Below the pieces are notes generated by a model. The model saw only the letters and a list, made by a program, of their open reading frames with translations. It was not told the DNA's origin and ran no database searches. Positions 10,357 through 46,344 of a DNA stretch of 64,000 nt are shown here, piece after piece; positions within the stretch are counted from its first letter, which is position 1, and every line of letters starts with the position of its first letter. The DNA lies in NCBI GenBank assembly GCA_963702535.1, contig CAVPDG010000007.1:4949-68948 (forward strand). Direction: 5' to 3'. The DNA comes from an uncultured Chloroflexia bacterium. Its GTDB lineage: Bacteria; Chloroflexota; Anaerolineae; Anaerolineales; UBA4823. The position numbers were made by a program, and so were the translations under genes.

Positions 10357-10457
10357 TGGATCTCCTGATGATTTATGTGCAGATTCTGCATAGCACCGCA
10401 TCCCTTACCCCCTGCCCTCGAGACTCGCTGGGGCAAGGGAGAAGGGAATGGGGTAGG

Positions 10458-11820: not shown

Positions 11821-11845
11821 TTACTCCTTGATTGGATGGATATGA

Positions 11846-12868
11846 TTACGGTTCAACCACCACTTTGATGGCTTCGGGGTTGCGGGTAGCTAAGAAGCCC
11901 TGGGCGGTGTCCCCCAGGCTGAAGATATCCGAGACCAGGTCGCCCATGCGCAACTGGGGTAATAAGCTGACGGCGTTCTGGTAATCCTGGATGGTGCAGT
12001 CGATGGAGCCGTGGATGTGCAGCTCGCGGTAGTGCACGTCGTTGAGCTGCATGTTGAGCGTGGAGCCTTTGAGATAGCCGCTGAAGAAGAGCAGCGAGCC
12101 GCCGGCGCGCACCAGGTCGAAGGTCTGCTCGGTGGCAGGGACGCTGGCGGTGGCGACGATGACGCGGTCAAAGGCATAGCCGAAGCGGCTCTTGAGGTCG
12201 ACGACGGTGGGGTCCACAGCTTCGACGGCGCCCAGGTCGAGCGCCATCTCGCGCCGGCGGGGGAGCAGCTCGCTGCTGGTGACGCGCGCGCCCATCAGGC
12301 GGGCGAGCTGGATGAAGGTGGCGCCGATGGGTCCGCCGCCGACGACAAGCACCTGGTCGCCGATCTCGATGCCCACCTGGCGCAGGCCGTGCAGGCAGCA
12401 ACCCACAAGCTCCGCCAGGGCGGCGGCGCGGGGGCTGGCGCCGGCGGGCAGCTTGACGGCGCCGCCCACCTGCACCATCTGGGCAGGGATGTACATATAT
12501 TCAGCCATTGCGCCGTGCACGTTGCAGCCGATGACCTTGGCGGTGGCGCAGATGTTATCCTGCCCGTGCGAGCAGGGATAGCAGTGCATGCAGGGGATGA
12601 TGGGAGCGATGCCCACCAGGTCGCCGGGCTTGTAATCGCTGAGATCGGCGCCCACCGCCACCACCTCGCCGCAGACCTCGTGCCCCAGGATGACCGGGTT
12701 GATGTAGCGGGACGAGGGACCGTTGAAGTACATGCGCTGGTCCGAGCCGCAGATGCCGCAGGTGAGCACGCGGATCAGAAGCCCTTGCAATTCCATCTCC
12801 GGCAGAGCAAAGCGCTCGATGCGGATATCTTCCTTGCCGTACAGTAATGCTGCTTGCGTGTCTTTCAT
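11846..12868 (-). CDS. Zinc-dependent medium-chain alcohol/polyol dehydrogenase (sorbitol/threonine DH-like)
   Basis: 340 aa with CGICGSDQ, GHEVCGEV, a CMHCYPCSHGQDNIC structural-zinc motif and a GGGPIG Rossmann motif. Confidence 0.85.
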   Translation of the reverse strand: MKDTQAALLYGKEDIRIERFALPEMELQGLLIRVLTCGICGSDQRMYFNGPSSRYINPVILGHEVCGEVVAVGADLSDYKPGDLVGIAPIIPCMHCYPCSHGQDNICATAKVIGCNVHGAMAEYMYIPAQMVQVGGAVKLPAGASPRAAALAELVGCCLHGLRQVGIEIGDQVLVVGGGPIGATFIQLARLMGARVTSSELLPRRREMALDLGAVEAVDPTVVDLKSRFGYAFDRVIVATASVPATEQTFDLVRAGGSLLFFSGYLKGSTLNMQLNDVHYRELHIHGSIDCTIQDYQNAVSLLPQLRMGDLVSDIFSLGDTAQGFLATRNPEAIKVVVEP

Positions 12869-12949
12869 GTGCTGTCTCCTCGTAATTCGCAGTAAGCTGT
12901 CAGCGATCAGCGAACAGCTTCCAGATAAGATATAGGGTGAATACCCTTC

Positions 12950-13594
12950 TCAGGCGCCTGCCTGAGGTTTTTGACTGGTGAGCACTTCGCCAACGGCGCC
13001 GCCGGGGTGCGTGACGCCGAACTGCTTGGGGTCGAAGCCCTTCTCAGCGATGACCACGGCGCACAGGGCGTCGCACATGGCGGAGAAGGCGACGGTGCTG
13101 GTTGTGGCGAGGTAGCCGCCCAGCTCGTACTCCTGCAGGCTGGGGATGGGCAGGATATGCCCGCAGGCGCGCGCCAGGGTGGATGCGGTGTTGTTGACAA
13201 AAGCTACCGTGCTGGCGCCGCGCCCGTTGGCGATGATGACCATCTGGTTGACCTCTTTGCTCTCGCCGCCGCGCGACATGGCGACGAGCACATCGCCGGG
13301 CTGGATGACCAGCGTGTGCCCGTGCAGCCCGTCCTGGGTGGAGAGGAACATCGAGCGCCCGCCGGAGCAGGTGAGGATGTGGGCGAAGCGCTCCGCCACG
13401 GCAGCGGAGGTGCCTACCGCGGTGGTCCAAACCACGCCGGGGCAATCGCAAAGCAGGCGGGCAACCTGGGAGAACGGCTCGCCGAGCTGGTCTTGCAGCG
13501 CTTGCAGGGTCTCGACCTCTTGCTGGATGATCTGCTTGCCGGCGAGGATGGCTTGGGAGGGTGGCAAAGTTGGCATCAGGGTTCCTATTCTCAA
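12950..13594 (-). CDS. SIS-domain protein (phosphosugar isomerase / deglycase type)
   Basis: 214 aa with VWTTAVGTSAAVAERFA and VLVAMSRGGESKEV, which are SIS signatures. It overlaps the DeoR gene end by 4 nt. Confidence 0.7.
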   Translation of the reverse strand: MRIGTLMPTLPPSQAILAGKQIIQQEVETLQALQDQLGEPFSQVARLLCDCPGVVWTTAVGTSAAVAERFAHILTCSGGRSMFLSTQDGLHGHTLVIQPGDVLVAMSRGGESKEVNQMVIIANGRGASTVAFVNNTASTLARACGHILPIPSLQEYELGGYLATTSTVAFSAMCDALCAVVIAEKGFDPKQFGVTHPGGAVGEVLTSQKPQAGA

Positions 13595-14362
13595 ACCAGG
13601 ATCACTTCAATCCCCAGGTCGCGCAGGGCGGCGACGAAATCTGGGGGGGCATCGCTATCGGTGATGAGCTTGTCTATGCCGCTGACGGGCATGATGGTCG
13701 CCAGCCCGATGCCGCCGATCTTGCTCGAATCGGAGACGACGATGACCTCGGTAGCAGCCTGGACCATGGCGCGATCGACCTCGGCCTCCAGGACGTTGGC
13801 GGTAGTGAAGCCGTGGGAGAGGGTCATGCCGTCGGTGCCGAGGAACATCTTGTCGACATGCAGCCCTTTGAGCTGATCGACGGTTTGCGGACCGACCAGG
13901 ACTTCGTAGGCGTGGACGTAAATGCCGCCGAGCAGGATGAGGTGCACGCCAGGCCACTGACCGAACAGGCGCACGACGGGCAGGTGGGCGGTGACAACGG
14001 TGATGTTGCCGGAGGTGAGCAGCTCCTTATCCAGGAAGTGAGCGATCTGCAATGGCGTGGTGCCCGAGTTCGATGATCACCCTTTCGTCGCGGCGGATCA
14101 TCGCAGCGGCGGCGCGCCCGATGCGCTCCTTCTTCTCCCGCTCGGCGTCCAGGTACAGTGCCAGGGGGGTGGCGCTTTCCAGCGTGACCGCCCCACCATG
14201 CACGCGCTTCAGCAGCCCTTGCTCCTCCATGATCTGCAGATCACGGCGGATGGAGACTTCTGAAACACCCATATGCGTACTCAGGTCGGCAACGCGCACG
14301 GTGCGGTTGCGGCTCAGCTCATCCAGGATGGCAGAGCGGCGCTTATTGGTGAGGGCAGCCAT
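13591..14362 (-). pseudogene. DeoR-family transcriptional regulator, frame broken once at CCC 14063-14065
   Basis: The N-terminal HTH (ORF 14027..14362, ...RRDLQIMEEQGLLKRVHGGAV...VIIELG) joins the sugar-binding DeoR C-domain (ORF 13591..14052, TTPLQIAHFL...KMFLGTDG...VVSDSSKIG). Dropping one G restores LGTTPLQIA. Confidence 0.85.
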
Positions 14363-14573
14363 GGCTTGGGCGATTATCCTGAAAACCGATCGAATGCAAT
14401 TGAATATTTACGAATGAAACATTTTCAGGTTATTAATCTCGAAATATTGTACAATTATTCACCATTTCTGTCAATGCGGCTTTCATTAGAAACAAAAACT
14501 GTTTTCGTTTGGTGCGTTAAAAAAATTCAATTGAATGTGAGCGAGTAAGAGATGTTCTTGTTCGATTCGTTGA

Positions 14574-14775
14574 TTAAATTGGCTCGAATGGGTGGAAACC
14601 TGGCGCACGCTGCGCCTGTGGTACCGGGCGGGTCCGGGAGAGCCGTGGGCGATGCTCGGCGAGCCGCTGCAGCACCGCAATGGTGAGATCACCTTCAGCA
14701 CAGACCACTTTACCCAATTCGCCTTGTTCGGTGAGGCGGGCTACGAGATGAGACTTCCCGATGATTGTGCGCTAG
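14574..14775 (+). pseudogene. 3' remnant of a secreted-protein gene (C-terminal ~65 codons only)
   Basis: The open frame LNWLEWVETWRTLRLWYRAGPGEPWAMLGEPLQHRNGEITFSTDHFTQFALFGEAGYEMRLP... begins abruptly at an AT-rich/GC-rich boundary with no plausible N-terminus. Removing one C from CCC at 14757-14759 makes it end ...RLPMIVR-stop. Confidence 0.35.
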
Positions 14776-14947
14776 GGGGGCGAACAACTGCTGGCCCGGC
14801 GTTGAGCGCGCGCGACCATAACAGTTGACCGTCACAGATCCGGTGACTGCCGACTGGCAATCAGAAGAAGGTGGTTCAGGGGTTGTTACCCGTGAGCCAT
14901 CTTTTTTTGATCCCCTCGAATTGTTAAAACTTCGGTGAAAATGGCTG

Positions 14948-14976
14948 TTGACATACGACTGAAATTTCAGTATAAT
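14948..14976 (+). promoter_or_regulatory. Consensus sigma70-type promoter with an embedded 14-bp palindrome (candidate GntR operator)
   Basis: TTGACA (14948-14953), a 17-nt spacer, then TATAAT (14971-14976). The perfect palindrome ACTGAAATTTCAGT (14958-14971) fills the spacer and the first base of the -10. It lies 75-95 nt upstream of the GntR gene. Confidence 0.6.
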
Positions 14977-15050
14977 TTCAATAATATAGCACCAATGTTT
15001 TTGTTAGCCTGTACGTACGCCCGACCCGTAGAATAATGTGATCTTTATCC

Positions 15051-15752
15051 TTGAACGACTTGAATGGGTATATGCCAGAGCTGCTGCGGGACCAAATCTA
15101 CCAAAATATCAAGCGAGACATTTTGAGCGGCGTCTACCAGCCAGGCGAGCAACTGCTTGTCAGCCAGCTGGCGGAGCGTTACACCAGCAGCGTCACACCG
15201 GTGCGGGAAGCTCTGAGCTTGATGGAGCAGGAAGGCTTGGTGGATGTGCTGCCACGCGTGGGTTATTTCGTCTCGCATATCACGGTGCAGGATATTCGCG
15301 CCATGTACGACTACCGCATCATCCTGGAAGGGGCTTCGGCAGAGATGGCAGCCCGCTATATCACCCCAGAGGAGCTGGAAGCCCTGGCGAGAATACCGAG
15401 CGATTATATCCTGGGTGACAACGAGAGCTACCTGGAATATCTCAAGAACAACCGCGAGTTCCACCTTTCGATTGCCAGGGCATCCCACAACCATTTCCTT
15501 GCCCGAGCCGTTGCGATGATGTTAGACCAAACGCAGCGGCTCGTTTTTTTGGGGATTGGATCGCAGCAGCACACGGATGAGATCTTACAAGCCCATCCCC
15601 GGCTGGTCGAGGCGCTGCGGTACAGAGACGCTACATTCGCGCGTGAGATCATGATCGAAGGCATCAAGGCTGCGCGAGATGCAGCTATTGAGCAAATTAT
15701 TTACGGAAGCAACCTACCTGTTTACAAAACCGATTTGTCATCCATCGGTTGA
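15051..15752 (+). CDS. GntR-family transcriptional regulator (FadR/FCD subfamily)
   Basis: Winged HTH (LLVSQLAERYTSSVTPVREALSLMEQEGLVDVLPRVGYFV) followed by an all-helical FCD-like domain. The track start is TTG 15051; ATG 15072 (MPELLRD...) is an equally plausible start. Confidence 0.8.
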   Translation: MNDLNGYMPELLRDQIYQNIKRDILSGVYQPGEQLLVSQLAERYTSSVTPVREALSLMEQEGLVDVLPRVGYFVSHITVQDIRAMYDYRIILEGASAEMAARYITPEELEALARIPSDYILGDNESYLEYLKNNREFHLSIARASHNHFLARAVAMMLDQTQRLVFLGIGSQQHTDEILQAHPRLVEALRYRDATFAREIMIEGIKAARDAAIEQIIYGSNLPVYKTDLSSIG

Positions 15753-15915
15753 GTGAGAACCTTTCTGGCGGGGATGCTATCGGAAATAAAATCAAAGAGG
15801 AGGTCGTTATCGAGCTAACCACGATGCTTTACCCGAGTGCTGTCCAATGGATCGTAGGACAACAACCAATGTGTGTATCCTGTCACAGATATCGAAAAAC
15901 CTGGAGGAGTAAGCA

Positions 15916-17185
15916 ATGAAAGGAAAACTATTTACAATCGCCAGCATCTTGATGGTCATTTCCATGTTGCTGGCAGCCTGCGCCCAGACCCCCGCAGCCA
16001 CCACGGAAGCTGAAAAGGTTATCAAGATTGGATTGATCGCCCCTTACACCGGACCCAACTCGCGTGTAGGCGATGAGCTGAAAGCAATCCATGAGACGGC
16101 TTTCGGGGAAATCAACTGGGAAGTCTGCGGCTACAAGATCGAGCCGGTGTACATCGACGATGAGTCCGACCCGGAGAAAGCCGTGCGGGCGTTCAAGGAT
16201 GCCGTGCTCAAGGAGAACATCCAGGCGGCAACCGGCGGTTACCATAGCTCAGTCACCGTGGCGCTGATGGACCCGCTTGCCGAGAATAAGATCCCCTATT
16301 TCTTCCCACAGAACGAGTTCGAGCGTGATTGTTGAGAAGTGGAAGTCCGATCCTGTGAAATACGCCTACCACTCGTGGAAAGGTCGCCCGAGCCCCGTTA
16401 AGCTGATGGTGGGCTATGACCTGGCTTTGTTCAAGAAGGCGATTGCGAATGGCACCTGGGCGCCTGCCAACCAGAAGTTCTCCATCCTGTGCGAAGACAC
16501 CGATTTCGGTCGTGATATGTGCGCCGGCTTCAAGAATATGGCTGAAGGCAACGGCTGGGAGATGGTTACCGAGGACTATGTGCCTCTGGACGCCTCCGAT
16601 GTCTATCCTATCCTGACCAAGGTCCAGGCTGCAGACCCGTCCCTGTTCTTCATCTCCATGGGCGCCCCCGCAGTAGCCACGGGCATCATCAAGCAGACGC
16701 GTGAGGTTGGCTTAAACTCCTTGGTGATCAGCCACGGTTTGGGCTGGATCGGCGAGTGGTACGAGCTCACCGGCGATGCCGGCGATTACGTGCTGGATAT
16801 GATGCAGAAGTGGAGCTCACCCGAGCAAATCAAGTATCGTGACGCTTTCAAAGCGAAATACAACATGGACCCCAGCGCCAGCCTGTCGATCTCCTATGAC
16901 TACGATAAATTCTTCATCAAGATCATGGAGCGCGCTTGCGAGAAGTACGGCAAGCTGGACAAAGAGTCAATCTTCAACATCGGTAACGACGAAGTCAGCA
17001 AGGGCATTCTGACCTACAAGGATGGCTTGTGGTATGACGAGCTCAAGTGGGATGCCGACAGCCTGCCTGAGATGGTCGTAGGCGAAGGCTACTACCTCGA
17101 TCCTGTTGTCCAGTACTTCGGCGGCGAGGCCACGATCATCTGGCCCGAAAACAGAAAAGAAGCAGAGCTTCAGATTAAACAATAG
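15916..17185 (+). pseudogene. Periplasmic binding protein of a LIV/HAAT-type (branched-chain amino acid-like) ABC transporter, frame broken once around 16300-16325
   Basis: Lipoprotein signal MKGKLFTIASILMVISMLLAAC, then IKIGLIAPYTGPNS..., typical of LivJ-like type I binding proteins. The protein continues in a second frame (ORF 16277..17185: ...VIVEKWKSDP...FFISMGAPAVATGIIKQTREVGL...). Confidence 0.8.
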
Positions 17186-17204
17186 CTAGCCGGATGAAAC
17201 CAGT

Positions 17205-17232
17205 CCGGGGAGGCAAGCGATTGCCTCCCCGG
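17205..17232 (+). other. Perfect 12-bp stem-loop directly after the binding-protein gene
   Basis: CCGGGGAGGCAA, loop GCGA, then TTGCCTCCCCGG. It lies between the SBP stop (17185) and the ATPase start (17255). Confidence 0.55.
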
Positions 17233-17254
17233 CACTCATCTTGTCCTTAGGAAG

Positions 17255-18007
17255 GTGAGCATGTTACTACAAGTTGACGATGTAACGAAGCGTTTTGGTG
17301 GTTTGGTGGCATTGAGCCATGTCACGATGAACGTGGGTGAAGGCGAGATCTTTGGATTGATCGGACCCAACGGGGCAGGGAAGACCACCCTGCTCAATGC
17401 GATTGCCGGTGTGGGAAAACCCAACAGCGGTCATATTCGCTTTGATGGAAAAGACGTGACGGGCTGGACGCCTGAAAAAATGTGCCAGGCGGGCTTATCA
17501 CGGACCTTTCAGGTGCCGCGGAAATTTAAAAAGCTTACCGTACACGAAAATGTGCTCGTGGCGACGACATTCGGCTTGAAGAAGCCATCCAAGACCCTGG
17601 ATGAGCTTACCGATGAGGCATTGGAGTTTGTAAAGTTTCCACTGCCCTTCGACACGACTGCCAATAAATTGAACACATCGCAGCTCAAGCGGCTTGACCT
17701 GGCGCGCGCCCTGGCAAGCCAGCCGAAGCTGCTGTTGCTGGATGAGCCTGCTTCAGGTCTGACGCCGACGGAAGTGGAAAGCCTGATGGAGCTCATCCGC
17801 GAGGTCCGCAAGAGCGGTGTGACGATCATCCTGGTAGAGCACTTAATGAAAGTTATTATGAGCATTTGCGACCGCATGCTTGTGTTGGAGTACGGTTCGA
17901 TGATCGCCGAGGGTACTCCGAAAGAGATCTCCAGCAATCCCAAAGTGATCCAGGCTTACCTGGGTGAGGATTATCTTCAGGAGAAGGCAGCCGCTGCTGC
18001 CGGATAA
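17255..18007 (+). CDS. ABC transporter ATP-binding protein (LivG-like)
   Basis: Walker A GPNGAGKTT, signature-like LNTSQLKRLDLARAL and Walker B LLLLDEP. Confidence 0.85.
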   Translation: MSMLLQVDDVTKRFGGLVALSHVTMNVGEGEIFGLIGPNGAGKTTLLNAIAGVGKPNSGHIRFDGKDVTGWTPEKMCQAGLSRTFQVPRKFKKLTVHENVLVATTFGLKKPSKTLDELTDEALEFVKFPLPFDTTANKLNTSQLKRLDLARALASQPKLLLLDEPASGLTPTEVESLMELIREVRKSGVTIILVEHLMKVIMSICDRMLVLEYGSMIAEGTPKEISSNPKVIQAYLGEDYLQEKAAAAAG

Positions 18008-18018
18008 GGAGGGTAAGC

Positions 18019-18723
18019 GTGTTAGAAGTAAAAGGACTCCAGTCTGGGTACGGGGATTTGCAAATACTCTGGGAGGTTAACCTGGAGCTGGCGGAAGGCG
18101 AGCTCATCGTCCTGTTGGGTCCCAATGGGGCTGGCAAGACCACCACGCTGCGTACGATCTCCGGCTTGCTCAAACCGATAGCAGGTGAGATCAATTTCCT
18201 GGGCAAATCGATCCAGGGCATGCCTGCCAACGAAATCAGCAAGCTGGGGATCAGCTTTATCACCGAGGATCTCAACCTGTTCCCACAAATGTCCGTCAAG
18301 GATAATTTGCTGGTCGGCGCTTATGCGGTGAAAGACAAGCAAGGGATCAAGAAATCTATGGATTATGCCCTTGCACTCTTCCCCCGGTTGCAAGAGCGTT
18401 TCAGCCAGGAAGCGGGCACTTTGAGCGGCGGGGAGCGGAAGATGCTGGCGGTCGCGCGCGGCTTGATGGCGCAACCCAAGCTGATCCTGGTGGATGAGCC
18501 CTCCCTGGGACTCTCGCCGCTGATGACGAAGGCGACTTTTGACGCCCTGCAGACCTTAAAGAAGGATGGCACGACGATCCTGCTGGTAGAACAATTTCTG
18601 GGCAGAGCGCTGGAGATCGCCAGCCGGGGCTATATCCTGGAGCATGGCAAAATCGTGATGCATGCGCCAACCGTGGAGCTGGTAGAAAACGAGCGGGTAA
18701 AAGAAGTTTACCTGGGAATGTGA
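18019..18723 (+). CDS. ABC transporter ATP-binding protein (LivF-like)
   Basis: GTG start, Walker A GPNGAGKTT, signature LSGGERKML and Walker B LILVDEPS. Confidence 0.85.
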   Translation: MLEVKGLQSGYGDLQILWEVNLELAEGELIVLLGPNGAGKTTTLRTISGLLKPIAGEINFLGKSIQGMPANEISKLGISFITEDLNLFPQMSVKDNLLVGAYAVKDKQGIKKSMDYALALFPRLQERFSQEAGTLSGGERKMLAVARGLMAQPKLILVDEPSLGLSPLMTKATFDALQTLKKDGTTILLVEQFLGRALEIASRGYILEHGKIVMHAPTVELVENERVKEVYLGM

Positions 18724-18760
18724 TCCCATCTGGGCGAAGCCTCATAAAGGAGTGATATCA

Positions 18761-19657
18761 ATGGACATTGTTGCAGTGTGGAATGTTGTAGCGGTTGGGT
18801 TGGTGCGAGGTGGTTTATACGCTCAGATGGCGTTGATGCTTGCCCTCATCCTGGGTGTGATGAGCATCATCTCCATGATCAACGGCGAGATTTATATGAT
18901 CGGGGCGTACGTGGCTTACTTTGCTTTCACCAAGTATCACCTGAACCCCATCTTGGCGATCCTTTCCGCGGCGATTGTGACGTTTGTGGTGGGCGCGCTG
19001 ATCGAGCGCGGACCTCTGGCGGTGATGCGCAAACGCGCCGGTGAAGACTGGTACCTGAATACGTTTCTCATCACCGTGGGCTTGGCGTTTGTCATCCGCA
19101 ACCTGGCGGTGGTGCTCTGGACACCCGCGTACCGGGGCATTCAATGGTACTGGAAAGGCACGGTCAATATCGGCGGCATGGGCATATCCATCGACCGGCT
19201 GGTGGCTTTGACGATTGCAGCCATCTCGATTGTCGCACTACAGCTTTTCTTGCGGCGTACCCGCATGGGCCGGGCGATCCGCGCCGTGAGCCAGGATGAG
19301 CGTGGGGCAAAGCTGGCGGGAATCAACATTGCCAATATCTATACACTATCCTTCGGGATCGCCTGCATGTTGGGCGGTATTGCCGGAGCGAGCATGCTTT
19401 CCATCCTTCCAGCCTCACCCTACATGGGCATTGCTCCCAATAATTACGCCTGGCTGGTGGTTATGCTGGCTGGCTTGGGGAATATCGGTGGCGCGGTCGT
19501 CGGCGGGTTCTTGATCGGCATGGTGGAAGCCATATCCTATCAATTCTTTGGCGCTGGTTGGCCGTATGTGATCAGCATCTCCATCCTGATCCTCGTCATG
19601 GTGATCAAGCCGTCGGGTCTCTTCGGCACCTCTGTCAAGGGTGTTTGGGAAAGGTAG
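18761..19657 (+). CDS. LIV-type ABC transporter permease (LivH-like)
   Basis: Start moved to ATG 18761, with AAGGAG 9 nt upstream. Polytopic, with a typical LivH-like GNIGGAVVGGFLIG C-terminal motif. Confidence 0.8.
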   Translation: MDIVAVWNVVAVGLVRGGLYAQMALMLALILGVMSIISMINGEIYMIGAYVAYFAFTKYHLNPILAILSAAIVTFVVGALIERGPLAVMRKRAGEDWYLNTFLITVGLAFVIRNLAVVLWTPAYRGIQWYWKGTVNIGGMGISIDRLVALTIAAISIVALQLFLRRTRMGRAIRAVSQDERGAKLAGINIANIYTLSFGIACMLGGIAGASMLSILPASPYMGIAPNNYAWLVVMLAGLGNIGGAVVGGFLIGMVEAISYQFFGAGWPYVISISILILVMVIKPSGLFGTSVKGVWER

Positions 19658-19665
19658 GTCGAGCG

Positions 19666-20673
19666 ATGGCAATCGAACACGAGAGGGCTGTACCCATGCA
19701 CAATACCTTGAGCCGCTTTAACATCCGGGGCAACCTGCCGGTGATCCTGTTTTTTGTGCTGATTGGACTGGGACCGATATTCATCAAAGATGAATACTTG
19801 CGCCATCTGATGGTCGTATCGTTGCTCTTTGGCGCGCAGGGTATGGTATCTGACTTTACGGTTGGCTACATCAACATCTCCAACTTTGGTTTTGCTGCCT
19901 TCTTTGGATTGGGCGCATACACTGCCGGCATCCTGGTGGGCAATTACGATGTGAATCCATACCTCGGCATGGTGGCTGGGATGTTGATGGCGGGTTTACT
20001 GGGCTTATTCACCGGTGCGCTGACCATGCGCCTGCGCGGGCTGTATGTTGCCATCATGGCTTGGTTCATGGCGCTGGCGCTGCAGGCGTTAGCCCTGGCG
20101 ATGGTTGATCTCACGCGCGGTTCGAGGGGTTTGTTCGTGCCATCGCTCTTCGAGTCCGGGTCGATTATCCCGTATTTCTACGTGCTCTTCATCCTGGTGG
20201 TCATCATCTTCGTGGTGATCAAGCTGGTGATCGCCTCGCGGGTGGGCTTGGCGTTCAAAGCCATCGGCTATGATGTGGATTTTGCCCGGGCGTCTGGGGT
20301 GAATCCCACATATTACAAGATGGTCGCCTTCGTCCTTTCCTGCGGCTTCGCTGGTCTGCTGGGCTCGTTCTACGCCTACTTCGTTGGCATCCTGACGCCG
20401 GATGTGATGGGTACCCAGCACACCGTTGAGGTGATCGCGCTGAATGTGATCGGTGGGCGCGCCAGCCTGTGGGGTCCGCTCCTGGCTGGATTTGTGATCA
20501 TCCCGCCCTTCGAATACATGAAATCGCTGATGGAAGTGCGCTTGATCATCTACGGCAGCCTGCTGGTGCTGACGATGATCTTCTTCCCGCCGGGGTTGGC
20601 TGGCATCGTGTGGAGGATCGGTGGAAAGCTGGGTCTGGTGAAGCACAAGACTTACTTCGGGACGGATGACTAA
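19666..20673 (+). CDS. LIV-type ABC transporter permease (LivM-like)
   Basis: Start moved to ATG 19666 (MAIEHERAV...), 9 nt after the LivH-like stop. The 108 nt of track ORF upstream overlap the preceding gene. Polytopic. Confidence 0.8.
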   Translation: MAIEHERAVPMHNTLSRFNIRGNLPVILFFVLIGLGPIFIKDEYLRHLMVVSLLFGAQGMVSDFTVGYINISNFGFAAFFGLGAYTAGILVGNYDVNPYLGMVAGMLMAGLLGLFTGALTMRLRGLYVAIMAWFMALALQALALAMVDLTRGSRGLFVPSLFESGSIIPYFYVLFILVVIIFVVIKLVIASRVGLAFKAIGYDVDFARASGVNPTYYKMVAFVLSCGFAGLLGSFYAYFVGILTPDVMGTQHTVEVIALNVIGGRASLWGPLLAGFVIIPPFEYMKSLMEVRLIIYGSLLVLTMIFFPPGLAGIVWRIGGKLGLVKHKTYFGTDD

Positions 20674-20696
20674 CCGGGAGCCGGTGGGGAGCCAAG

Positions 20697-21713
20697 ATGC
20701 CAAGAAGAGCTTCAATCTCTGGGCTGGAACAGCAGATCGTCCAATACCTGGGGAAACTGCCAGGAAGCGTCCTGGGTGTTGACTCCACGCAACCGGTCGA
20801 GATTTTGGATATGACGCCGGGAGCGTACAACCTGAACTTCCATGTGGCGATCGACGGGAAGCGCTTCATCTTTCGGGTCAATATCCAGCAGCAGAGCGGG
20901 TTGGCGGAGCAGATCGATTACGAATTGGCAGTGATGCTGTACCTGTATCCCTATCACATCACACCGATGATTTACCACGTCGATAACACCAAGTCTTTCT
21001 TCGACTTCGACGTGCTGATCGAGGAATACCTGGAGGGTCCCTACATCTCCTTGACCGAGGAGGAGATGCCAGCCGTGGCAGCTTTGCTGGCAAAGCTGCA
21101 CTCCCTGGATCCGCACAAAGTGCCGCTGATCACCTGGTCGAAACCGCTGGAGGACACGCTGCAGCTCGTGCTGAGCGACTTGCAGGAATACAAAGCGAAG
21201 AAGAGCGCCGAGGCGCGGGTGATTGCCCTCACGGAGCGCTTCTTAGCCAAAGCGGAGCCGGTGGTCGCTGCCAAAGCCGGGCTGTTTACGCCAGACGGCA
21301 TCAATCACACGGATGTCGCTGTAGATAACTTCATCAAGACGCGAGATGGCTTGAAGCTGATCGATTGGGAGAAGCCGCGTTACGACGATTGCAGCTACGA
21401 CGTGTGCTGTTTCCTCTCCGAGCCATGCCAGCTCTGGTGCTTGCCGGAAGTACTGCCGCCGGCGGGTAGGGAAGTTTTCCTGCAGGAATATGTGCGCTTA
21501 TCGGGCAGGGATGAAGAGCTGTTCCGAGAGAAAGTGCGCGTGCGTGAGCCGCTGGTTTCCCTGCACTGGATCTTCTGGGGATTGAACCGGCTGTGCGATC
21601 TGAAAGACCAGACGACCGCCTCCGCTCTGCAAGAGGTGCACGGGGAGAAGGTCTCGCGCTGGGTGCGGATCGCTGAACCTTGTCTTATAGAGAAATTGAT
21701 CGACCAGGTTTGA
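20697..21713 (+). CDS. APH-fold small-molecule kinase (aminoglycoside phosphotransferase / choline kinase / fructosamine kinase superfamily)
   Basis: 338 aa. INHTDVAVDNFI...LKLIDWEKPRYDD matches the catalytic-loop HxDxxxxN plus the DWE metal-binding motif of this fold. Confidence 0.65.
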   Translation: MPRRASISGLEQQIVQYLGKLPGSVLGVDSTQPVEILDMTPGAYNLNFHVAIDGKRFIFRVNIQQQSGLAEQIDYELAVMLYLYPYHITPMIYHVDNTKSFFDFDVLIEEYLEGPYISLTEEEMPAVAALLAKLHSLDPHKVPLITWSKPLEDTLQLVLSDLQEYKAKKSAEARVIALTERFLAKAEPVVAAKAGLFTPDGINHTDVAVDNFIKTRDGLKLIDWEKPRYDDCSYDVCCFLSEPCQLWCLPEVLPPAGREVFLQEYVRLSGRDEELFREKVRVREPLVSLHWIFWGLNRLCDLKDQTTASALQEVHGEKVSRWVRIAEPCLIEKLIDQV

Positions 21714-21775
21714 TCAATTTCATAAGAATACTCGGCTGCTGGAAAGCAGCCTCCAACTAAAAAAGGAGATTTAGA

Positions 21776-22906
21776 ATGGCAAGAACTACTATCATGCTCG
21801 TCGGACTGGGAGAATTAGGTGGACACGTACTGGAAATGCTCGTGCGCGCTCCCGGGAACCGGCGCATCGTCACTGCAGATGTTGACGAAGACAGAGCGTA
21901 CCGCAAGACCCAAATTGCAATCTACGGCGCTTCCCAGATGGGTTACTACCCGGATGTGGAATTCACCAAGATCGACCTTAACAATAAAGAGCAATCCGCT
22001 GAGGTCATCAACCGCGTCAACCCCGACGTGATCTACAGCGCCGCCACATTGCAGTCGTGGTGGGTCATCACCACCCTGCCCAAGCCCGTCTTCGACGACC
22101 TGGACAAGGCGCGCTTCGGTCCCTGGCTGCCCATGCACCTGAGCGTGGTTTACAAGCTGATGCAGGCAGTCAAAGCCACCGGCAAGGATTACAAAGTCGT
22201 CAATTCAGCCTTCCCGGATGCCTGCGGGCCGATCCTGAAGACGCGTGGCTTGAACCCGACGGTAGGCATCGGCAACGTTGCCAACCCGGTCCCGGCGATC
22301 CGCCTGGGCATTGCCGACCAGCTGGGTGTAAAGCTGAGCGATGTGAAGATCTACCTCGCCTGCCAGCACTATGTCAGCCACTACATCCCGCGCTTCGGCA
22401 CAGCCGGCGGCGCGCCCTATTATCTCAGGGCGTATGTGGGCGGCAAGGATGTGACCAAGGAAGTGGATATCGACAAAGTATTTGCCGAAGCGCCTACGAA
22501 GTACCGCCGCACCGGCGGACTGGGCGGGCAGATCCTGACCGCTTCTTCTGCAGCCGCCATCACCCTGGCGATGGCAGACGACAAGCGCGAGTTCCTGCAC
22601 GCACCCGCTCCGGACGGCTTGCCCGGCGGTTACCCCGTGCGCGTGGATGCCAACGGCGCCACGCTCGACCTGCCCAACGACCTGTCTGTTGAAGAGGCCA
22701 TCCGCATCAACGAGGAAGGGCAAGCCATCGACGGCCTCGAGCGCATCGATAAGAATGGCACTGCCTATATCCCCGAGTGGTCTAACGACATCATGAAGCG
22801 CATGGTCGGCTTCGACTGCAAGGTGATGCCGCTGGACGACATTCACGAGATCGCAGCCGAGCTGGGCGCCAAGTTCAAGGCGTTTGCCGCTACGTACGCG
22901 AAATAG
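21776..22906 (+). CDS. Saccharopine dehydrogenase-like NAD(P)-binding oxidoreductase (function unknown)
   Basis: N-terminal Rossmann IMLVGLGELGGHVLEMLV...IVTADVDEDRA...VNPDVIYSAATL resembles the saccharopine-DH NADP-binding domain. The C-terminal half is not recognisable to me. Confidence 0.4.
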   Translation: MARTTIMLVGLGELGGHVLEMLVRAPGNRRIVTADVDEDRAYRKTQIAIYGASQMGYYPDVEFTKIDLNNKEQSAEVINRVNPDVIYSAATLQSWWVITTLPKPVFDDLDKARFGPWLPMHLSVVYKLMQAVKATGKDYKVVNSAFPDACGPILKTRGLNPTVGIGNVANPVPAIRLGIADQLGVKLSDVKIYLACQHYVSHYIPRFGTAGGAPYYLRAYVGGKDVTKEVDIDKVFAEAPTKYRRTGGLGGQILTASSAAAITLAMADDKREFLHAPAPDGLPGGYPVRVDANGATLDLPNDLSVEEAIRINEEGQAIDGLERIDKNGTAYIPEWSNDIMKRMVGFDCKVMPLDDIHEIAAELGAKFKAFAATYAK

Positions 22907-22925
22907 CAACACCCGCAACGATTTG

Positions 22926-23044
22926 GGAGATTGTCCCGTGCAATCCTGATGAGGGGCAATCTCCGTGCTGGAGGGGCGGCGCATCCCCAACATCCTCGAA
23001 CGACCATCATCGTACACGGGGAAGCAGCGCCGCCCTTCTTTTTC
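22926..23044 (+). promoter_or_regulatory. Two consecutive stem-loops, the second followed by a T-run (terminator/attenuator-like)
   Basis: GGAGATTG (22926-22933) pairs with CAATCTCC (22957-22964). GGGCGGCGC (22974-22982) pairs with GCGCCGCCC (23027-23035), followed by TTCTTTTTC. Confidence 0.4.
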
Positions 23045-23056
23045 AAAGAGGACCAA

Positions 23057-24058
23057 GTGAGCGCATTCAGCAAAGTTGAGTTCATTTACCTCTCGCAGGA
23101 GGATGTCATCCGAGTCGGGTTGACGATGCGTGAGGTAATTGCTGCTGTGGAAGCGGTGTTCGGCGAGCACGGCATGAAGCGCGTGGAAAACCCGCCCAAA
23201 CCCGGCATCCATCCCATACCGAGCGCATTCTTGCATGCCATGCCGGCTTTCCTGCCGGGGCTGGATGCGGCAGGGATGAAGTGGGTGAGCAGCTACCCCA
23301 CCAACGCGCAGCACAACCTGCCGGCGGTGATGGGGGTGATGATCCTGAACGAGGTGCAGACGGGCAGACCGCTGGCGATCATGGACTGTCGCTGGATCAC
23401 GGCGGCGCGCACCGGCGCAGCCTCAGCCGTGGCGGCGAAGTACCTGGCGCGGCAGGGGGCAGAGGTGGTAGGTATTGTGGGGGCGGGCGTGCAGGGACGC
23501 TTCAACCTGCTGGCGCTGCGGGAAACGCTGCCCGGGCTCAGGCTGGTGAAGTATTACGATCTCTACCCCGAGACGCTCAATGCAAGCGTGGAGGCGATGG
23601 GGGCAGGCGTCCATTACCAGGTGAAAGCTTGCGCATCTGCCAGGGAGGCGATTGAGGGTTCGGACGTGATCGTCACCTGCACCGGAAAGCTGGAGCAAGT
23701 GGTCTATTATGATGCCTGGGTCAAGCCGGGTGCCCTGGTGCTGCCGGTTCACCACCGCGGCTGGGAGAATAAGACCCTCCACAACGCCGATAAGTTCGTC
23801 ACCGATGATTGGGAGCAGCTCTCCAAGTCTGCGGCGGCGGTGGGCGGGTTCGACGGCGCGCTGCCGCTGCCGTACGCCGAGCTGGGCGAGATCGTCACGG
23901 GTCAGAAGCCCGGGCGCCAGCGGGATGATGAACGCATCATCGATTTCAATTACGGTCTGGCGATGGAGGATATCGCCGTCGCCAAGCAAATTTACGCCAA
24001 GGCGCTCGAGCGCGGCATGGGGCAACGCCTGACATTGATGGAGAAAGATTTCAGTTGA
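23057..24058 (+). CDS. Ornithine cyclodeaminase / mu-crystallin family protein
   Basis: Start chosen at GTG 23057 (VSAFSKVEFIYLSQEDV...), with AGAGGA upstream. ITAARTGAASAVAAKYLAR and VGIVGAGVQGRFNL are typical OCD-family motifs. Confidence 0.8.
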   Translation: MSAFSKVEFIYLSQEDVIRVGLTMREVIAAVEAVFGEHGMKRVENPPKPGIHPIPSAFLHAMPAFLPGLDAAGMKWVSSYPTNAQHNLPAVMGVMILNEVQTGRPLAIMDCRWITAARTGAASAVAAKYLARQGAEVVGIVGAGVQGRFNLLALRETLPGLRLVKYYDLYPETLNASVEAMGAGVHYQVKACASAREAIEGSDVIVTCTGKLEQVVYYDAWVKPGALVLPVHHRGWENKTLHNADKFVTDDWEQLSKSAAAVGGFDGALPLPYAELGEIVTGQKPGRQRDDERIIDFNYGLAMEDIAVAKQIYAKALERGMGQRLTLMEKDFS

Positions 24059-24099
24059 CCATCAGCGGCAAAACCTGGCGGATGGCAAATTCTTCTGGA

Positions 24100-24126
24100 C
24101 ACGGATAACCACGGATACCACGGATA
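24100..24126 (+). repeat. Three direct copies of CACGGATA at 10- and 9-bp spacing
   Basis: CACGGATA at 24100-24107, 24110-24117 and 24119-24126, about 30 nt upstream of the opine-DH-family gene start. Confidence 0.7.
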
Positions 24127-24156
24127 AAAAGAAGAAAACATTGCACGGAGGTTGAA

Positions 24157-25242
24157 ATGACAGTAAGCAAAATAGCTGTGTTGGGGGGCGGGAACGCCTC
24201 GCACACGATTTCCGCCGATCTGACCCTGAAGGGGCTATCGGTGAACTTGTTCGAGATGGAGCGCTTTGCCGACTCGATGCGCACCGTTTTTGAGACGGGC
24301 GAGATCGAGATGTCCGGCGTGGCGGGCTCGGGCAAAGCCAGGCTCAACATGGTGACGAGCGACATCGCACAAGCGGTGGCGGGGGTGGAGGTGATCTTCA
24401 TGCCGCTGCCTGGCTTTACGGTGGGACCCTACGCTGAGCTGCTGGCGCCGCACCTGGTGGACGGGCAGGCGGTAGTGATGCTGCCCGGCAGCCTTTCGGC
24501 GCTGGAGTTCCTCACCGCCATCCGCCGCCTGGGCTGCAAGAGCGATGTCATTGCCGCGGAGACGGGCGGGTTGCCCTTTGCCACGCGCCTGGTGGCGCCG
24601 GGCAAGGTTAAGACCTTCCACATCCGGGCGATCTGCACCCTGGCGACCGTACCGGGCAACCGCTGCCAGGAGCTGTACAAGAAGATCGAGGGGCTGTACC
24701 CGTTTGCGCCGCGCAAGACGGTGGTGGAGACGGGGCTGGCGCACCTGACGCCGCTGCTGCACCCCGTGGGCACGCTGCTCAACGCCGGGCGCATCGAGCG
24801 CTCGCACGGCGACTTTTACATGTACGAGGAAGGTATGACACCCGGCGTTGTGCGCGTAGCCGAGCGGGTGGACCAGGAGCGCCTGGCGATCGGTGAGAAG
24901 ATGGGCATCAAGCTGCCGACCGGCGTGGATATGATGGTCGAATTGGCTTATGGGCCGCGCGGCACGCTGTGGGAATTGGTCAACGGCAGCGCCGGGCTGA
25001 CGCCGGTGAGAGGACCCGATTCGCTGAGCAGTCGCTACCTCACCGAGGATGTGCCCTTCGGTTTGGTGCCGTGGGCGAGCCTGGGGCATGCCGTGGGCGT
25101 GGCAACGCCGATCATGGATGCGCTGGTCGCCATCGGCGGCGCGATCATGGGCGTAGATCCCTGGGAGCACGGGCGCAACTTGAAGAAGATGGGGCTGGAC
25201 GGCAAAGACTTGCAGGAGATCAAGGCATACCTCGAGGGGTAG
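24157..25242 (+). CDS. NAD/NADP octopine/nopaline (opine) dehydrogenase family protein
   Basis: 361 aa with N-terminal IAVLGGGNASHT Rossmann and C-terminal SRYLTEDVPFGLVPWASLG, typical of the octopine-DH domain. Confidence 0.75.
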   Translation: MTVSKIAVLGGGNASHTISADLTLKGLSVNLFEMERFADSMRTVFETGEIEMSGVAGSGKARLNMVTSDIAQAVAGVEVIFMPLPGFTVGPYAELLAPHLVDGQAVVMLPGSLSALEFLTAIRRLGCKSDVIAAETGGLPFATRLVAPGKVKTFHIRAICTLATVPGNRCQELYKKIEGLYPFAPRKTVVETGLAHLTPLLHPVGTLLNAGRIERSHGDFYMYEEGMTPGVVRVAERVDQERLAIGEKMGIKLPTGVDMMVELAYGPRGTLWELVNGSAGLTPVRGPDSLSSRYLTEDVPFGLVPWASLGHAVGVATPIMDALVAIGGAIMGVDPWEHGRNLKKMGLDGKDLQEIKAYLEG

Positions 25243-25263
25243 CCTGATTGAACCGAAAAATCT

Positions 25264-25301
25264 GACCGGATGCGGGCGCAATTCCGCATCCGGTCTTTTT
25301 A
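25264..25301. terminator. Bidirectional rho-independent terminator
   Basis: GACCGGATGCGG, an 8-nt loop, then CCGCATCCGGTC followed by TTTTTATTTTA. An A-run (GAAAAATCT) lies on the other side. It sits between convergent genes. Confidence 0.8.
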
Positions 25302-25303
25302 TT

Positions 25304-26179
25304 TTAATCGGCAAGATTGCGGAAGTAGCGCACGCTCAGCCACAGGGCGGCCAGGCTTAGGATGACAAAAGAGCCGACCATGCCGATCATCTGCCCGGGA
25401 TTGAGGAAAATGCCCACTATGCGCTGGAAAATCGTCTGCCCGATGACCACCAGCCCGATCAGCATACATAGCGTGAGCATGGAGGCTGAGAGCACCAGGG
25501 AAACCGGCAGGCGGCGGCGCAGCAGTAAGCCGGTGAGGATGAGCACGGGGGTGATGATGCCCAGGTCGAGAACATAGGTGACCTCGGTGGTGTAGCTTTC
25601 CAGGGTGGGAATGGGCTGACCGGAGAAAAGAGCGCCGAGCAAGCCGGACATCCACACCAGGAGCAGGATGGCGCCCGAGACGAGCATGAAGATCGATAGT
25701 CCACGGTAGGGCATGCCGGGCAGAACGTGGGAAGGTAAGACAACCAGGTCGACGGCGCAAAAAGCCAGGATGAAGGCAAACAGGCTAAGCGAGAATGTGA
25801 CGATGTAGAGCAGGAGCAGAGGGTTATAAGCCGCGCCTAATGCGAGGGAGGCGGCGTTATACAACGCATAGGTCAGGGCGCCCACCAGGAGCAGCAAACC
25901 GCGCAGCTTACCCCGGCGATAGAGCAAGAACGCCACTGACAGCAGGGGAACGCCCACCAGCAGGGTGATGGCGTCCGAGCCGCGCAGCGTGGCGCCTTTC
26001 ATCAGCGAATCGAAATGGTAGAGGCCGGAGCCGTACATCTGGATTGTCTGGCCATGCAGCGTGGTGAAGGTGAATGGTCCTCCGCCGCCGGCGGGCCAGA
26101 ATAGCCCGGCAGCCGCGGCAAGCAGGGTGAAGAGAGCGATGGGAGGGACGAGCCAATTGAGAGCAGGCTGGGGTTTCAT
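25304..26179 (-). CDS. Polytopic membrane protein, function unknown
   Basis: 291 aa with about 8 hydrophobic segments. I recognise no family motif. Confidence 0.6.
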   Translation of the reverse strand: MKPQPALNWLVPPIALFTLLAAAAGLFWPAGGGGPFTFTTLHGQTIQMYGSGLYHFDSLMKGATLRGSDAITLLVGVPLLSVAFLLYRRGKLRGLLLLVGALTYALYNAASLALGAAYNPLLLLYIVTFSLSLFAFILAFCAVDLVVLPSHVLPGMPYRGLSIFMLVSGAILLLVWMSGLLGALFSGQPIPTLESYTTEVTYVLDLGIITPVLILTGLLLRRRLPVSLVLSASMLTLCMLIGLVVIGQTIFQRIVGIFLNPGQMIGMVGSFVILSLAALWLSVRYFRNLAD

Positions 26180-27129: not shown

Positions 27130-27798
27130 ATGCCTCCCCCGATGAAGGAAGCCTACTTCACCCCAGATAACCTGGCGAGCCAGACCCAAGAGTTGTTGCA
27201 GGCGCCTGGCATCGTGCTCCGTCCGTCCACGCCCAAATTCAACCCGCAGGGAGCAGCCTTACTGGTGCTGGACATGCAGCTCTACTTCCTGGAGCCAGAA
27301 TCGCACGCATATATCCCCAGCGCGGCCGCTATCCTGCCGGGTATCGCGGAACTGACGCGCAGTTTTTATGCCCACGAGCTGCCGGTGGTATTCTCCCGGC
27401 ACACCAACACGCCCCAGGATGCAGGATGGATGGCAACCTGGTGGAAGGACTTGATCGCGCCGGATGAGAGGCGCAGCGCCATCACACCCCAGCTAGACAC
27501 CTCTCGGGCAAGGGTGATCGAGAAGAAGCGCTACGACGCATTCCTGGATACGCCACTGGAAGCGTACCTGCACAGCTTGCAGGTGGAGCAGGTGGTGATC
27601 ACAGGCGTGATGACGCACCTGTGCTGTGAAACCACTGCCCGCTCGGCATTCATGCGCGGTTTTTTGCCCTTCTTCCTGGTGGACGGCACCGCCACCTACA
27701 ACCGCTATTTCCATATCGCCACGCTCACCAACCTGGCGCACGGCTTCGCCCACCTGGCGCGGGTGCAGGATATCCTTGCCGCGCTGGAGGGCGAGTGA
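27130..27798 (+). CDS. Isochorismatase-family (cysteine hydrolase) protein
   Basis: AALLVLDMQLYF, KKRYDAF and VVITGVMTHLCCETTARSA give the D-K-C catalytic-triad context of isochorismatase/nicotinamidase-like hydrolases. Confidence 0.8.
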   Translation: MPPPMKEAYFTPDNLASQTQELLQAPGIVLRPSTPKFNPQGAALLVLDMQLYFLEPESHAYIPSAAAILPGIAELTRSFYAHELPVVFSRHTNTPQDAGWMATWWKDLIAPDERRSAITPQLDTSRARVIEKKRYDAFLDTPLEAYLHSLQVEQVVITGVMTHLCCETTARSAFMRGFLPFFLVDGTATYNRYFHIATLTNLAHGFAHLARVQDILAALEGE

Positions 27799-46239: not shown

Positions 46240-46272
46240 TCAACCTCGGTTTGGTTCCACAATCGCGAGGGT

Positions 46273-46323: not shown

Positions 46324-46344
46324 GTAACTACTCAGTCCCCTATG

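Follow-up and report, generated by a model that had tools for sequence, protein, structure and literature searches.

Gene organization of the locus

The stretch of DNA analyzed here (the window, 64,000 nucleotides from an uncultured Chloroflexia bacterium) carries ten + strand genes in its 14948–25295 region, separated by intergenic gaps of 12–164 bp. They encode a GntR/FCD regulator, a five-component ATP-binding cassette (ABC) importer, and four cytoplasmic enzymes: a choline/ethanolamine-kinase-fold kinase (KIN), a protein with a predicted L-lactate dehydrogenase (LDH)/malate dehydrogenase (MDH)-like fold (LDHl), an OCD/mu-crystallin-family enzyme (OCD), and an opine-dehydrogenase-family enzyme (ODH). 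A preceding sequence-only reading had described ten co-directional genes, and the shared orientation and Pfam support bear this out. The features, in window positions, are as follows.

14948–14976, + strand: sigma-70-type promoter, TTGACA-17-TATAAT, consensus match 12/12, with the GntR start codon 75 bp downstream
14958–14971, no strand: perfect 14-bp palindrome ACTGAAATTTCAGT in the promoter spacer, candidate GntR/FCD operator
15051–15752, + strand: GntR + FCD regulator (Pfam GntR 64.7 bits, FCD 74.4 bits)
15916–17185, + strand: LIV-type Peripla_BP_6 lipoprotein solute-binding protein, +1 frameshift near 16317, both open reading frames (ORFs) matching Peripla_BP_6
17255–18007, + strand: LivG-like ABC ATPase (Pfam ABC_tran + BCA_ABC_TP_C)
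18019–18723, + strand: LivF-like ABC ATPase (Pfam ABC_tran)
18752–19657, + strand: LivH-like ABC permease (Pfam BPD_transp_2, 101 bits)
about 19666–20673, + strand: LivM-like ABC permease (Pfam BPD_transp_2, 108 bits), internal ATG taken as start
20697–21713, + strand: KIN, choline/ethanolamine-kinase-fold small-molecule kinase (Pfam APH 66.9 bits, Choline_kinase 37.1 bits)
21776–22906, + strand: LDHl, predicted NAD-type Rossmann enzyme of L-LDH/MDH-like fold (no Pfam match above cut-off)
23058–24058, + strand: OCD/mu-crystallin-family NAD(P) enzyme (Pfam OCD_Mu_crystall 226.8 bits)
24157–25242, + strand: ODH, opine-dehydrogenase-family enzyme (Pfam Octopine_DH 139.3 bits)
25264–25295, + strand: intrinsic-terminator-like hairpin 22 bp 3′ of the ODH stop codon, with a 13-bp stem (9 GC pairs) and then a T-run (TTTTTATTTT)

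Position 14948, from which the sequence-only reading had counted the locus, is the −35 box of the perfect promoter. The palindrome in the spacer was the sole match across the window when up to two mismatches were allowed. Its 12-bp core, CTGAAATTTCAG, is invariant 5′ of the GntR gene in two related loci (L005 and L022) and 5′ of the LDHl gene in a third (L076), and the sequence around the core has diverged among these four independent loci, the window included. The palindrome is a plausible operator of the GntR/FCD protein and would fit a repressor-controlled, substrate-induced operon. In many relatives the GntR gene lies directly 5′ of the kinase gene. An Rfam scan of 14300–25500 found no riboswitch and no other RNA family. 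The AT-rich spacer 5′ of the GntR gene also contains a second near-consensus promoter (TTGACA-17-TACAAT, 11/12; 14446–14474, − strand), which points away from the operon.

The importer has the composition of a LIV-type (HAAT) ABC system, with a Peripla_BP_6 binding protein, two BPD_transp_2 permeases, and two ATPases, one with BCA_ABC_TP_C. The LivM-like ORF spans 19558–20673, and the ATG at 19666 comes after the LivH stop codon. The binding-protein gene is divided into two ORFs (15916–16335 and 16277–17185) by one extra T near 16317 (‘gagttcgag’, 16310–16325) that breaks the reading frame. Removal of this T yields PQNESSVIVEKW, which corresponds to PQNESSVIVEKY in the intact 447-aa homologue of L005, and relatives encode ...PQNESSVIVEK... 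within a single 447-aa ORF. The frameshift is either a recent pseudogene mutation or an assembly indel. Against solved structures, the LIV binding protein had only distant matches, to aromatic-acid binders, and the tripartite ATP-independent periplasmic (TRAP) binding protein of related loci likewise had only distant matches, to generically annotated DctP-family or sialic-acid binders.

Conservation of the kinase and LDHl genes

LDHl-encoding loci were gathered from genomes (23) and metagenomes (60) and are designated by L numbers; about 54 of the loci are non-redundant. Their ORFs were clustered. Neighbor positions were counted over 79 LDHl loci; removal of near-duplicates gave 32 locus groups with at least 6 kb. 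The “recurrent” ORF clusters c86, c90, c91, c65, and c24 were set aside as antisense or low-complexity products of simple ORF picking.

The closest genome is the Anaerolineales metagenome-assembled genome (MAG) STC_77, in which LDHl is 85–86% identical and the other products are 59–82% identical, so that the window probably derives from Anaerolineales. The identical ten-gene order was found in L005, in L034, and in L022 together with L015 (STC_77) at 59–84% amino-acid identity; the regulator, five-component importer, and enzymes named together in the sequence-only reading are therefore co-conserved. In Spirochaetota (L017, L078, and L080), OCD-KIN-LDHl-ODH stands behind a TRAP transporter and a helix-turn-helix (HTH)-cupin regulator. 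The recurrence of the ten-gene order, together with that of the four enzyme genes in Spirochaetota, indicates that the arrangement is not due to chance.

The kinase gene lies directly 5′ of the LDHl gene in 44 of the 79 loci, and a further 17 loci end at a contig edge. The position directly 3′ of LDHl is occupied by OCD (10 loci), a binding protein (7), ODH (5), or an MttB-family gene (3). Among the 32 de-duplicated groups, 24 contain KIN, at least 18 a transporter, 11 OCD, 11 ODH, and 8 MttB. The pair occurs in Anaerolineales, Desulfobacterales, NC10, and Spirochaetota, and minimal loci (L011, L016, and L071) consist of a transporter, a regulator, KIN, and LDHl only. These data strongly support the view that the constant unit is the kinase plus LDHl, with OCD and ODH frequent but optional and lineage-variable. 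LDHl is 61–65% identical between Anaerolineales and Desulfobacterales regardless of its neighbors, a constancy that speaks for a single function supplied by differing upstream steps.

Properties of the four enzymes

KIN falls within the choline/ethanolamine kinase family (PF01633, 37.1 bits, cut-off 29) and carries a Brenner motif, HTDVAVDN, and the choline kinase (ChoK)-type motif LIDWE...YDVCCFLSE. Its AlphaFold2 model has a predicted local distance difference test (pLDDT) score of 92, and Foldseek placed an ethanolamine kinase of Plasmodium and a number of choline kinases at the top, with type-II homoserine kinase and LicA next. K226-P227-R228 and D230-D231 are invariant and lie inside the ChoK substrate-loop motif. 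K226/R228 together with D230/D231 are consistent with a zwitterionic substrate, and the invariant K226 and R228 hint that this substrate may bear an anionic group and differ from choline and ethanolamine.

LDHl had no match in NCBIfam or PDB by sequence, no Ldh_1 Pfam match at E ≤ 0.01, and no Pfam match to Sacchrp_dh_C, so it falls outside the saccharopine dehydrogenase family (PF03435 + PF16653). Its only Pfam match is a sub-threshold one to Sacchrp_dh_NADP (17.3 bits, cut-off 25.1), over the N-terminal 80 residues only. The AlphaFold2 model (pLDDT 88.6) gave LDH/MDH structures as all of its best 50 Foldseek matches (probability 1.0), with template-modeling scores of 0.5–0.7 over 340–357 aligned columns and about 16% identity. 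A profile search returned one marginal match, to MDH, and in this alignment the invariant His198 of LDHl falls on the catalytic His195 of LDH/MDH. The earlier label “saccharopine-dehydrogenase-like” therefore fails for the fold but has a partial sequence basis in the N-terminal Rossmann region, since 18 of 26 distant family members match the Sacchrp_dh_NADP Rossmann model, and that model only (best E = 6e-9). Other invariant residues are D35 at the end of β-2, which suggests NAD as the cofactor, and R43, R113, R176, R206, R244, and R245, which point to an anionic, possibly phosphorylated, substrate.

The LDHl family comprises 1107 clusters at 50% identity (E ≤ 1e-3); nearly all members have one domain and a length of about 375 aa, and their source-given names are all “hypothetical.” Distant homologues (35–46% identical) occur without the kinase in Pseudomonas, Erwinia, and Streptomyces. 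In the Pseudomonas loci L023, L026, L027, and L028 (about 10000–15300), the genes 3′ of the homologues (35–39% identical) are DUF72, Exo_endo_phos, PLD-type (cardiolipin-synthase-like), and LPG_synthase_TM genes, and we presume that their arrangement resembles the ybhP-clsB-ybhN operon of E. coli. These neighbors hint at a role of the wider family in phospho-head-group chemistry. The idea that LDHl is GH4-like (NAD + Mn) was rejected, as GH4 enzymes carry a metal-binding Cys motif and none was spotted by eye in the LDHl sequence. In several metagenome or MAG loci (L024/L087, 10275–11121; L080; L081) LDHl is split into two ORFs, and in the L024/L087 lineage no kinase was found 5′ of the split gene. 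These split copies may be decaying genes or assembly errors.

OCD is a clear member of the OCD/mu-crystallin family (PF02423, 226.8 bits against a cut-off of 24), as the sequence-only reading had it. The protein lies below all NCBIfam equivalog cut-offs (alanine dehydrogenase [AlaDH] 203, cut-off 409; SbnB 200, cut-off 327) and in none of the named isofunctional subgroups (ornithine cyclodeaminase, archaeal AlaDH, SbnB, EutC, LhpI, and BhcD). Its best PDB matches are Δ1-pyrroline-2-carboxylate (Pyr2C) reductase 6t3e, archaeal AlaDH, and SbnB. At the family level it would be an imine reductase, a secondary-amine dehydrogenase, or a cyclodeaminase. The most probable start codon of the gene is the GTG at 23058, which is preceded by an AAGAGGA ribosome-binding site and gives an N-terminus that agrees with L005.

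ODH matches Octopine_DH (PF02317) with 139.3 bits against a cut-off of 30, and aligns over its full length (residues 6–356, E = 1.1e-52) with Arthrobacter N-(1-D-carboxyethyl)-L-norvaline dehydrogenase (CENDH, 1bg6). The positions of CENDH H202, R292, and D297, which we take to be the catalytic His-Arg-Asp, are kept, and the ODH motifs HPvgtllNagR and RYlteDV align to HPLPTLLNAAR and RYFFEDV of CENDH. By this sequence evidence ODH is a genuine member of the opine-dehydrogenase family and not a glycerol-3-phosphate-dehydrogenase-like or ketopantoate-reductase-like protein, the alternatives that the sequence-only reading had named.

Recurrent neighbors in related loci

MttB-family methyltransferase genes lie beside the pair in L002, L003, L012, L053/54, L060, L067, and L083, and in eight or nine de-duplicated locus groups overall; Pro_racemase-family genes do so in L012, L018, L063, and L064. 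A DAO gene accompanied by an OoxA-like flavoprotein gene occurs in L002 and L011, and DAO alone in L035 and L064; ODH and DAO were never found in the same locus, although the numbers are small. MR_MLE genes are present in L002 and L016. A bifunctional PutA gene directly follows LDHl in L016 and follows MttB and OCD in L012; in L063, a pyrroline-5-carboxylate (P5C) reductase gene stands immediately 5′ of GntR-KIN-LDHl-OCD-ODH, and L054 encodes a betaine-type ABC system with OpuAC. When 115 non-core neighbor proteins were compared with Pfam, the few families that matched more than one protein included DAO, Pro_racemase, Pro_dh, Aldedh, DHDPS, and MR_MLE; no nicotianamine-synthase family was among the Pfam families matching at least two of them. 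The DAO, Pro_racemase, DHDPS, Aldedh, and OCD-family neighbors belong to what we take to be the families of hydroxyproline catabolic clusters. The recurrent neighbors suggest a link with the metabolism of proline, hydroxyproline, and betaines and not with classical opines.

Two unrelated loci (L002, 11200–11982; L063, 6697–7482) encode, just 3′ of kinase-LDHl(-OCD-ODH), a Cys-rich protein of about 260 aa (CLKCV..C, DVCGKC) that matches no Pfam family and may be an iron-sulfur accessory protein.

In the window, homologues of MR_MLE, corrinoid-protein, OpuAC, and choline-sulfatase genes were searched for and none was found. At 32447–35627, 7–10 kb 3′ of the operon, genes for a DeoR-type regulator, a URO-D-family (MtaA/MtbA-like) methyltransferase, and an MttB-family methyltransferase stand in a row. 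This MttB (34170–35627), 9 kb from the operon, is 20–27% identical to the KIN-adjacent ones, and the window MttB/URO-D genes are unrelated to the KIN-linked MttB genes. At 27130–28674, an isochorismatase-family gene precedes a Pyr_redox_2/3 ORF whose match covers profile positions 100–278 only; this ORF apparently lacks its N-terminus and may be another frameshift or truncation. G+C content is 0.48–0.51 at 46000–52000 and 58000–60000, against about 0.60–0.65 elsewhere, and these segments were possibly acquired or are mobile.

Discussion

We consider it probable that this locus is an inducible catabolic operon in which the kinase and LDHl act as a functional pair on a hydroxylated amine. Regarding the compound degraded, we tentatively favor a substrate-inducible operon for a hydroxylated proline-type amine that feeds proline metabolism. 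The specific combination of a hydroxyproline-type substrate with the elimination chemistry described below is more doubtful.

The imported compound would combine an N-C-C-OH motif, the choline/ethanolamine pattern, with a carboxylate, as in the group of hydroxyproline and N-alkylated (hydroxy)proline. We place a carboxylate on the substrate because of the TRAP/LIV importers, the FCD regulator, and the position of K226/R228 next to D230/D231 in KIN. KIN would phosphorylate the hydroxyl group, and LDHl with NAD would oxidize the adjacent C-N or C-OH of the phosphoester, upon which phosphate would leave and a pyrroline-carboxylate would be formed. The NAD-type Rossmann site and the His at the LDH catalytic position would serve the LDHl step, and its arginines could bind anionic groups. 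OCD would then reduce the imine to L-proline, in keeping with Pyr2C reductase as its best solved relative. The opine-dehydrogenase family acts on D-configured N-substituted amino-acid centers; ODH might oxidize a D-configured or N-carboxyalkyl secondary amine to the same imine, as an NAD-linked stand-in for the DAO flavoproteins. Proline would be converted to glutamate via PutA, which is encoded beside the pair in relatives and would be encoded elsewhere in the genome of the window. MttB enzymes would replace oxygenases in these anaerobes.

Several observations weigh against this proposal. The substrate is deduced only from neighbor genes in other genomes, and a search for PutA, Pro_racemase, DAO, and P5C reductase homologues in the window found none. 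Hydroxyproline dehydration by known enzymes needs no ATP, which leaves the kinase requirement unexplained. The proposed LDHl chemistry is without direct precedent in the LDH fold, and LDHl has Asn170 and Ala174 at the positions of LDH Asp168 and Arg171, so that the catalytic pair and the substrate-binding Arg are not kept. Transporter classes vary among loci (LIV, TRAP, SBP_bac_5, PotD-like, and OpuAC). Some neighbors have no place in the scheme: hydantoinase/oxoprolinase genes in one Desulfobacterales lineage, an aldo-keto reductase gene in L003, transaldolase and transketolase genes in L067, and, on the short contig L079 (3–908), a choline-sulfatase-like gene (Sulfatase + Choline_sulf_C) directly 5′ of KIN, which is the strongest single hint of a choline-type substrate. 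Finally, the operon of the window may be decaying, given its frameshifted binding-protein gene.

The most far-reaching form of our proposal is speculative, and we regard it as unlikely. The kinase and LDHl would constitute an unrecognized two-enzyme device that removes or transforms the hydroxyl group of hydroxyproline-type compounds (β-hydroxy amines) by ATP-dependent phosphorylation and subsequent NAD-assisted elimination of phosphate. Needing neither oxygen nor radicals, it would be a counterpart to the glycyl-radical hydroxyproline dehydratase and would be widespread among the anaerobes of sediments (Desulfobacterales, Anaerolineales, NC10, and Spirochaetota). LDHl would then be the first member of a new enzyme family.

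Opine catabolism, the function suggested by the sequence-only reading, is in our view a minor possibility. An N-(1-carboxyalkyl) amino acid would be imported and cleaved by ODH, and possibly OCD, to a 2-oxoacid and an amino acid, which in octopine-type catabolism would be, for example, ornithine or arginine; OCD would cyclodeaminate ornithine to proline, and KIN and LDHl would handle a released hydroxylated moiety. ODH is indeed a full-length CENDH relative with its catalytic positions kept, the OCD family includes opine dehydrogenases and ornithine cyclodeaminase, and SbnB, among the best NCBIfam scores of OCD, cleaves an N-carboxyalkyl amine. The combination of ODH, OCD, and an importer parallels the ooxAB-ocd logic of Agrobacterium, with PutA downstream in relatives; all TRAP-type loci, whose transporters require a carboxylate, have ODH and/or OCD; and L045 has an SBP_bac_5 (peptide/opine-type) transporter. 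However, of the 32 well-covered loci only about 11 carry ODH and only about 11 OCD, while KIN and LDHl are constant, so the opine step cannot be what defines the pathway. Neither an arginase gene nor a second gene for handling a 2-oxoacid recurs, we know of no natural hydroxylated opine that needs a ChoK-like kinase, and the MttB, MR_MLE, and OpuAC neighbors are left unexplained. Of the earlier suggestion, uptake and catabolism stand with the importer operon; the opine-like compound is put in question by the optional nature of OCD and ODH (about one-third of the loci of at least 6 kb) and by the proline/betaine-type neighbors.

We think it rather unlikely that the operon serves an amino-alcohol route akin to that of MthK and MthB, in which LDHl would process a phospho-amino-alcohol as an NAD-dependent analogue of the pyridoxal-phosphate-dependent phospho-lyases, and MttB, ODH, and OCD would strip N-methyl or N-carboxyalkyl groups from precursors. 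The folds nearest to KIN are ethanolamine and choline kinases, with the Choline_kinase Pfam score above its cut-off, and MthK and MthB genes co-localize in bacteria that include δ-proteobacteria (PMC12155760). MttB genes adjoin KIN-LDHl in L002, L012, L053/54, and L067; the choline-sulfatase-like gene of L079, OpuAC in L054, the aldo-keto reductase gene after LDHl in L003, and the phospholipid head-group genes beside the distant Pseudomonas homologues of LDHl would also fit. In contrast, the TRAP/LIV importers and the FCD regulator suggest a carboxylate-bearing substrate, the invariant basic residues of the KIN substrate loop (K226 and R228) speak for an anionic substrate group, and the PutA, Pro_racemase, P5C reductase, and OCD neighbors are not accounted for. 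The operon of the window is also without MttB, and the window MttB is only distantly related to the KIN-adjacent ones.

An improbable alternative is a hydroxy-amino-acid funnel, in which KIN would phosphorylate serine, threonine, homoserine, or a related hydroxy-amino acid, LDHl would oxidize the product toward a central phospho-oxoacid, much as in the serine-kinase route of Thermococcus, and OCD and ODH would supply the amino acid from N-substituted forms. The minimal loci L011, L016, and L071 would imply just two steps to a central metabolite, KIN is weakly similar to type-II homoserine kinase in both NCBIfam and Foldseek, and an amino-acid-type LIV importer is present. Nevertheless, the LDH-like fold is not, to our knowledge, an amino-acid dehydrogenase scaffold, no SerC, SerA, or ThrC partner recurs, and the proline-ring theme of the neighbors finds no explanation.

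Biosynthesis of a staphylopine-like opine-type metallophore or a compatible solute, with ODH as the terminal reductive condensing enzyme, the alternative that the sequence-only reading had raised, is very improbable: CntM-type enzymes do fall in the Octopine_DH family, but no CntL-like (nicotianamine-synthase-like) gene, for which the sequence-only reading had proposed a check, and no CntK racemase gene was found in the locus or among the recurrent neighbors, a transporter with a solute-binding protein is an importer, GntR/FCD regulators are typical of catabolic operons, and ODH is optional among LDHl loci. A role in the synthesis of the aminopropanol linker of B12 was rejected on account of the consistent linkage to a transporter and a regulator.

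Full-text literature searches found no description of the kinase and LDH-fold pair or of this operon. The operon type, a regulator with an importer and catabolic enzymes, is ordinary; the core enzyme pair and the LDHl family are not described. The claim of the sequence-only reading that the kinase makes the pathway potentially new is thus reinforced, with the kinase and LDHl as the constant pair. If our proposal of a hydroxylated proline-type substrate is true, it would give a function to the LDHl family, more than 1100 clusters at 50% identity without a domain model or solved structure. It would also add a phosphorylation-dependent step to the anaerobic catabolism of proline, hydroxyproline, and betaine osmolytes and of collagen or plant-wall breakdown products; such compounds are plentiful in sediments as sources of nitrogen and carbon. 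The MthK idea, that anaerobes “activate” hydroxylated amines by a choline-kinase-like enzyme, would be extended, and bacterial opine-dehydrogenase homologues would acquire a catabolic role beyond Agrobacterium and metallophore biosynthesis. Even with a wrong guess of the substrate, the tight linkage of the kinase and LDHl genes opens an unknown pathway to clear tests.

Comparison with known systems

The locus differs from the staphylopine-type (CntKLM) systems, as no CntL was found beside ODH in the locus by Pfam. The relation of ODH to CENDH is distant in sequence, and a genomic context of a kinase, LDHl, and OCD is not described for CENDH. The predicted fold of LDHl matches the L-LDH/MDH superfamily element by element, with a His at the His195 position and a low-confidence loop with an invariant Arg where the mobile loop of LDH sits. 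In contrast, LDHl has about 60 extra C-terminal residues, and its N-terminal Rossmann sequence is closer to Sacchrp_dh_NADP.

The octopine and nopaline systems of Agrobacterium (occ/noc: an ABC importer, OoxAB/NoxAB, arginase, and ornithine cyclodeaminase) share with the window the combination of an importer, a secondary-amine oxidoreductase, and an OCD-family enzyme leading to proline. However, their opine oxidase is a flavoprotein whereas the window has an NAD-type opine dehydrogenase, and the occ/noc transporter is a polar-amino-acid-type ABC system, unlike the LIV-type ABC system of the window. The operon of the window also lacks arginase and has the extra kinase and LDH-fold pair as its conserved core.

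The proline-betaine/hydroxyproline-betaine pathway proceeds through the epimerase HpbD, demethylases, the flavoprotein HpbA, and PutA (PMC3950512). Such betaine/hydroxyproline clusters (HpbD, demethylases, HpbA, D-hydroxyproline dehydrogenase, Pyr2C reductase, and PutA; PMC3950512, PMC4113996) resemble the relatives of our locus, which carry MR_MLE, DAO-type, Pro_racemase, OCD-family, DHDPS, Aldedh, PutA, and OpuAC-type binding-protein genes. The described pathways, however, have no kinase or LDH-fold enzyme, and their Rieske demethylases stand in contrast to the MttB-family methyltransferases of LDHl loci. The window itself lacks the accessory genes and has an NAD-type opine-dehydrogenase homologue instead of a flavoprotein.

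In Eubacterium limosum, the choline-kinase-like enzyme MthK phosphorylates choline before MttB-type demethylation, and MthK and MthB genes co-localize in Firmicutes and δ-proteobacteria (PMC12155760). An LDH-fold partner is not among the listed components (PMC12155760), whereas it is constant in LDHl loci. The arrangement of a kinase beside MttB, a corrinoid protein, and a methyl-corrinoid:tetrahydrofolate methyltransferase is absent from the window, whose operon has no MttB or corrinoid protein and whose transporter and regulator, like those of its relatives, suggest a carboxylated substrate; the kinase-MttB feature is present in L002, L012, L053/54, and L067. Both systems nonetheless have a choline-kinase-like kinase that activates, or in KIN would activate, a hydroxylated amine, and in both the kinase is linked to MttB-family genes in anaerobes. 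MthK and MthB thus provide a precedent for the phosphorylation step that we propose for KIN.

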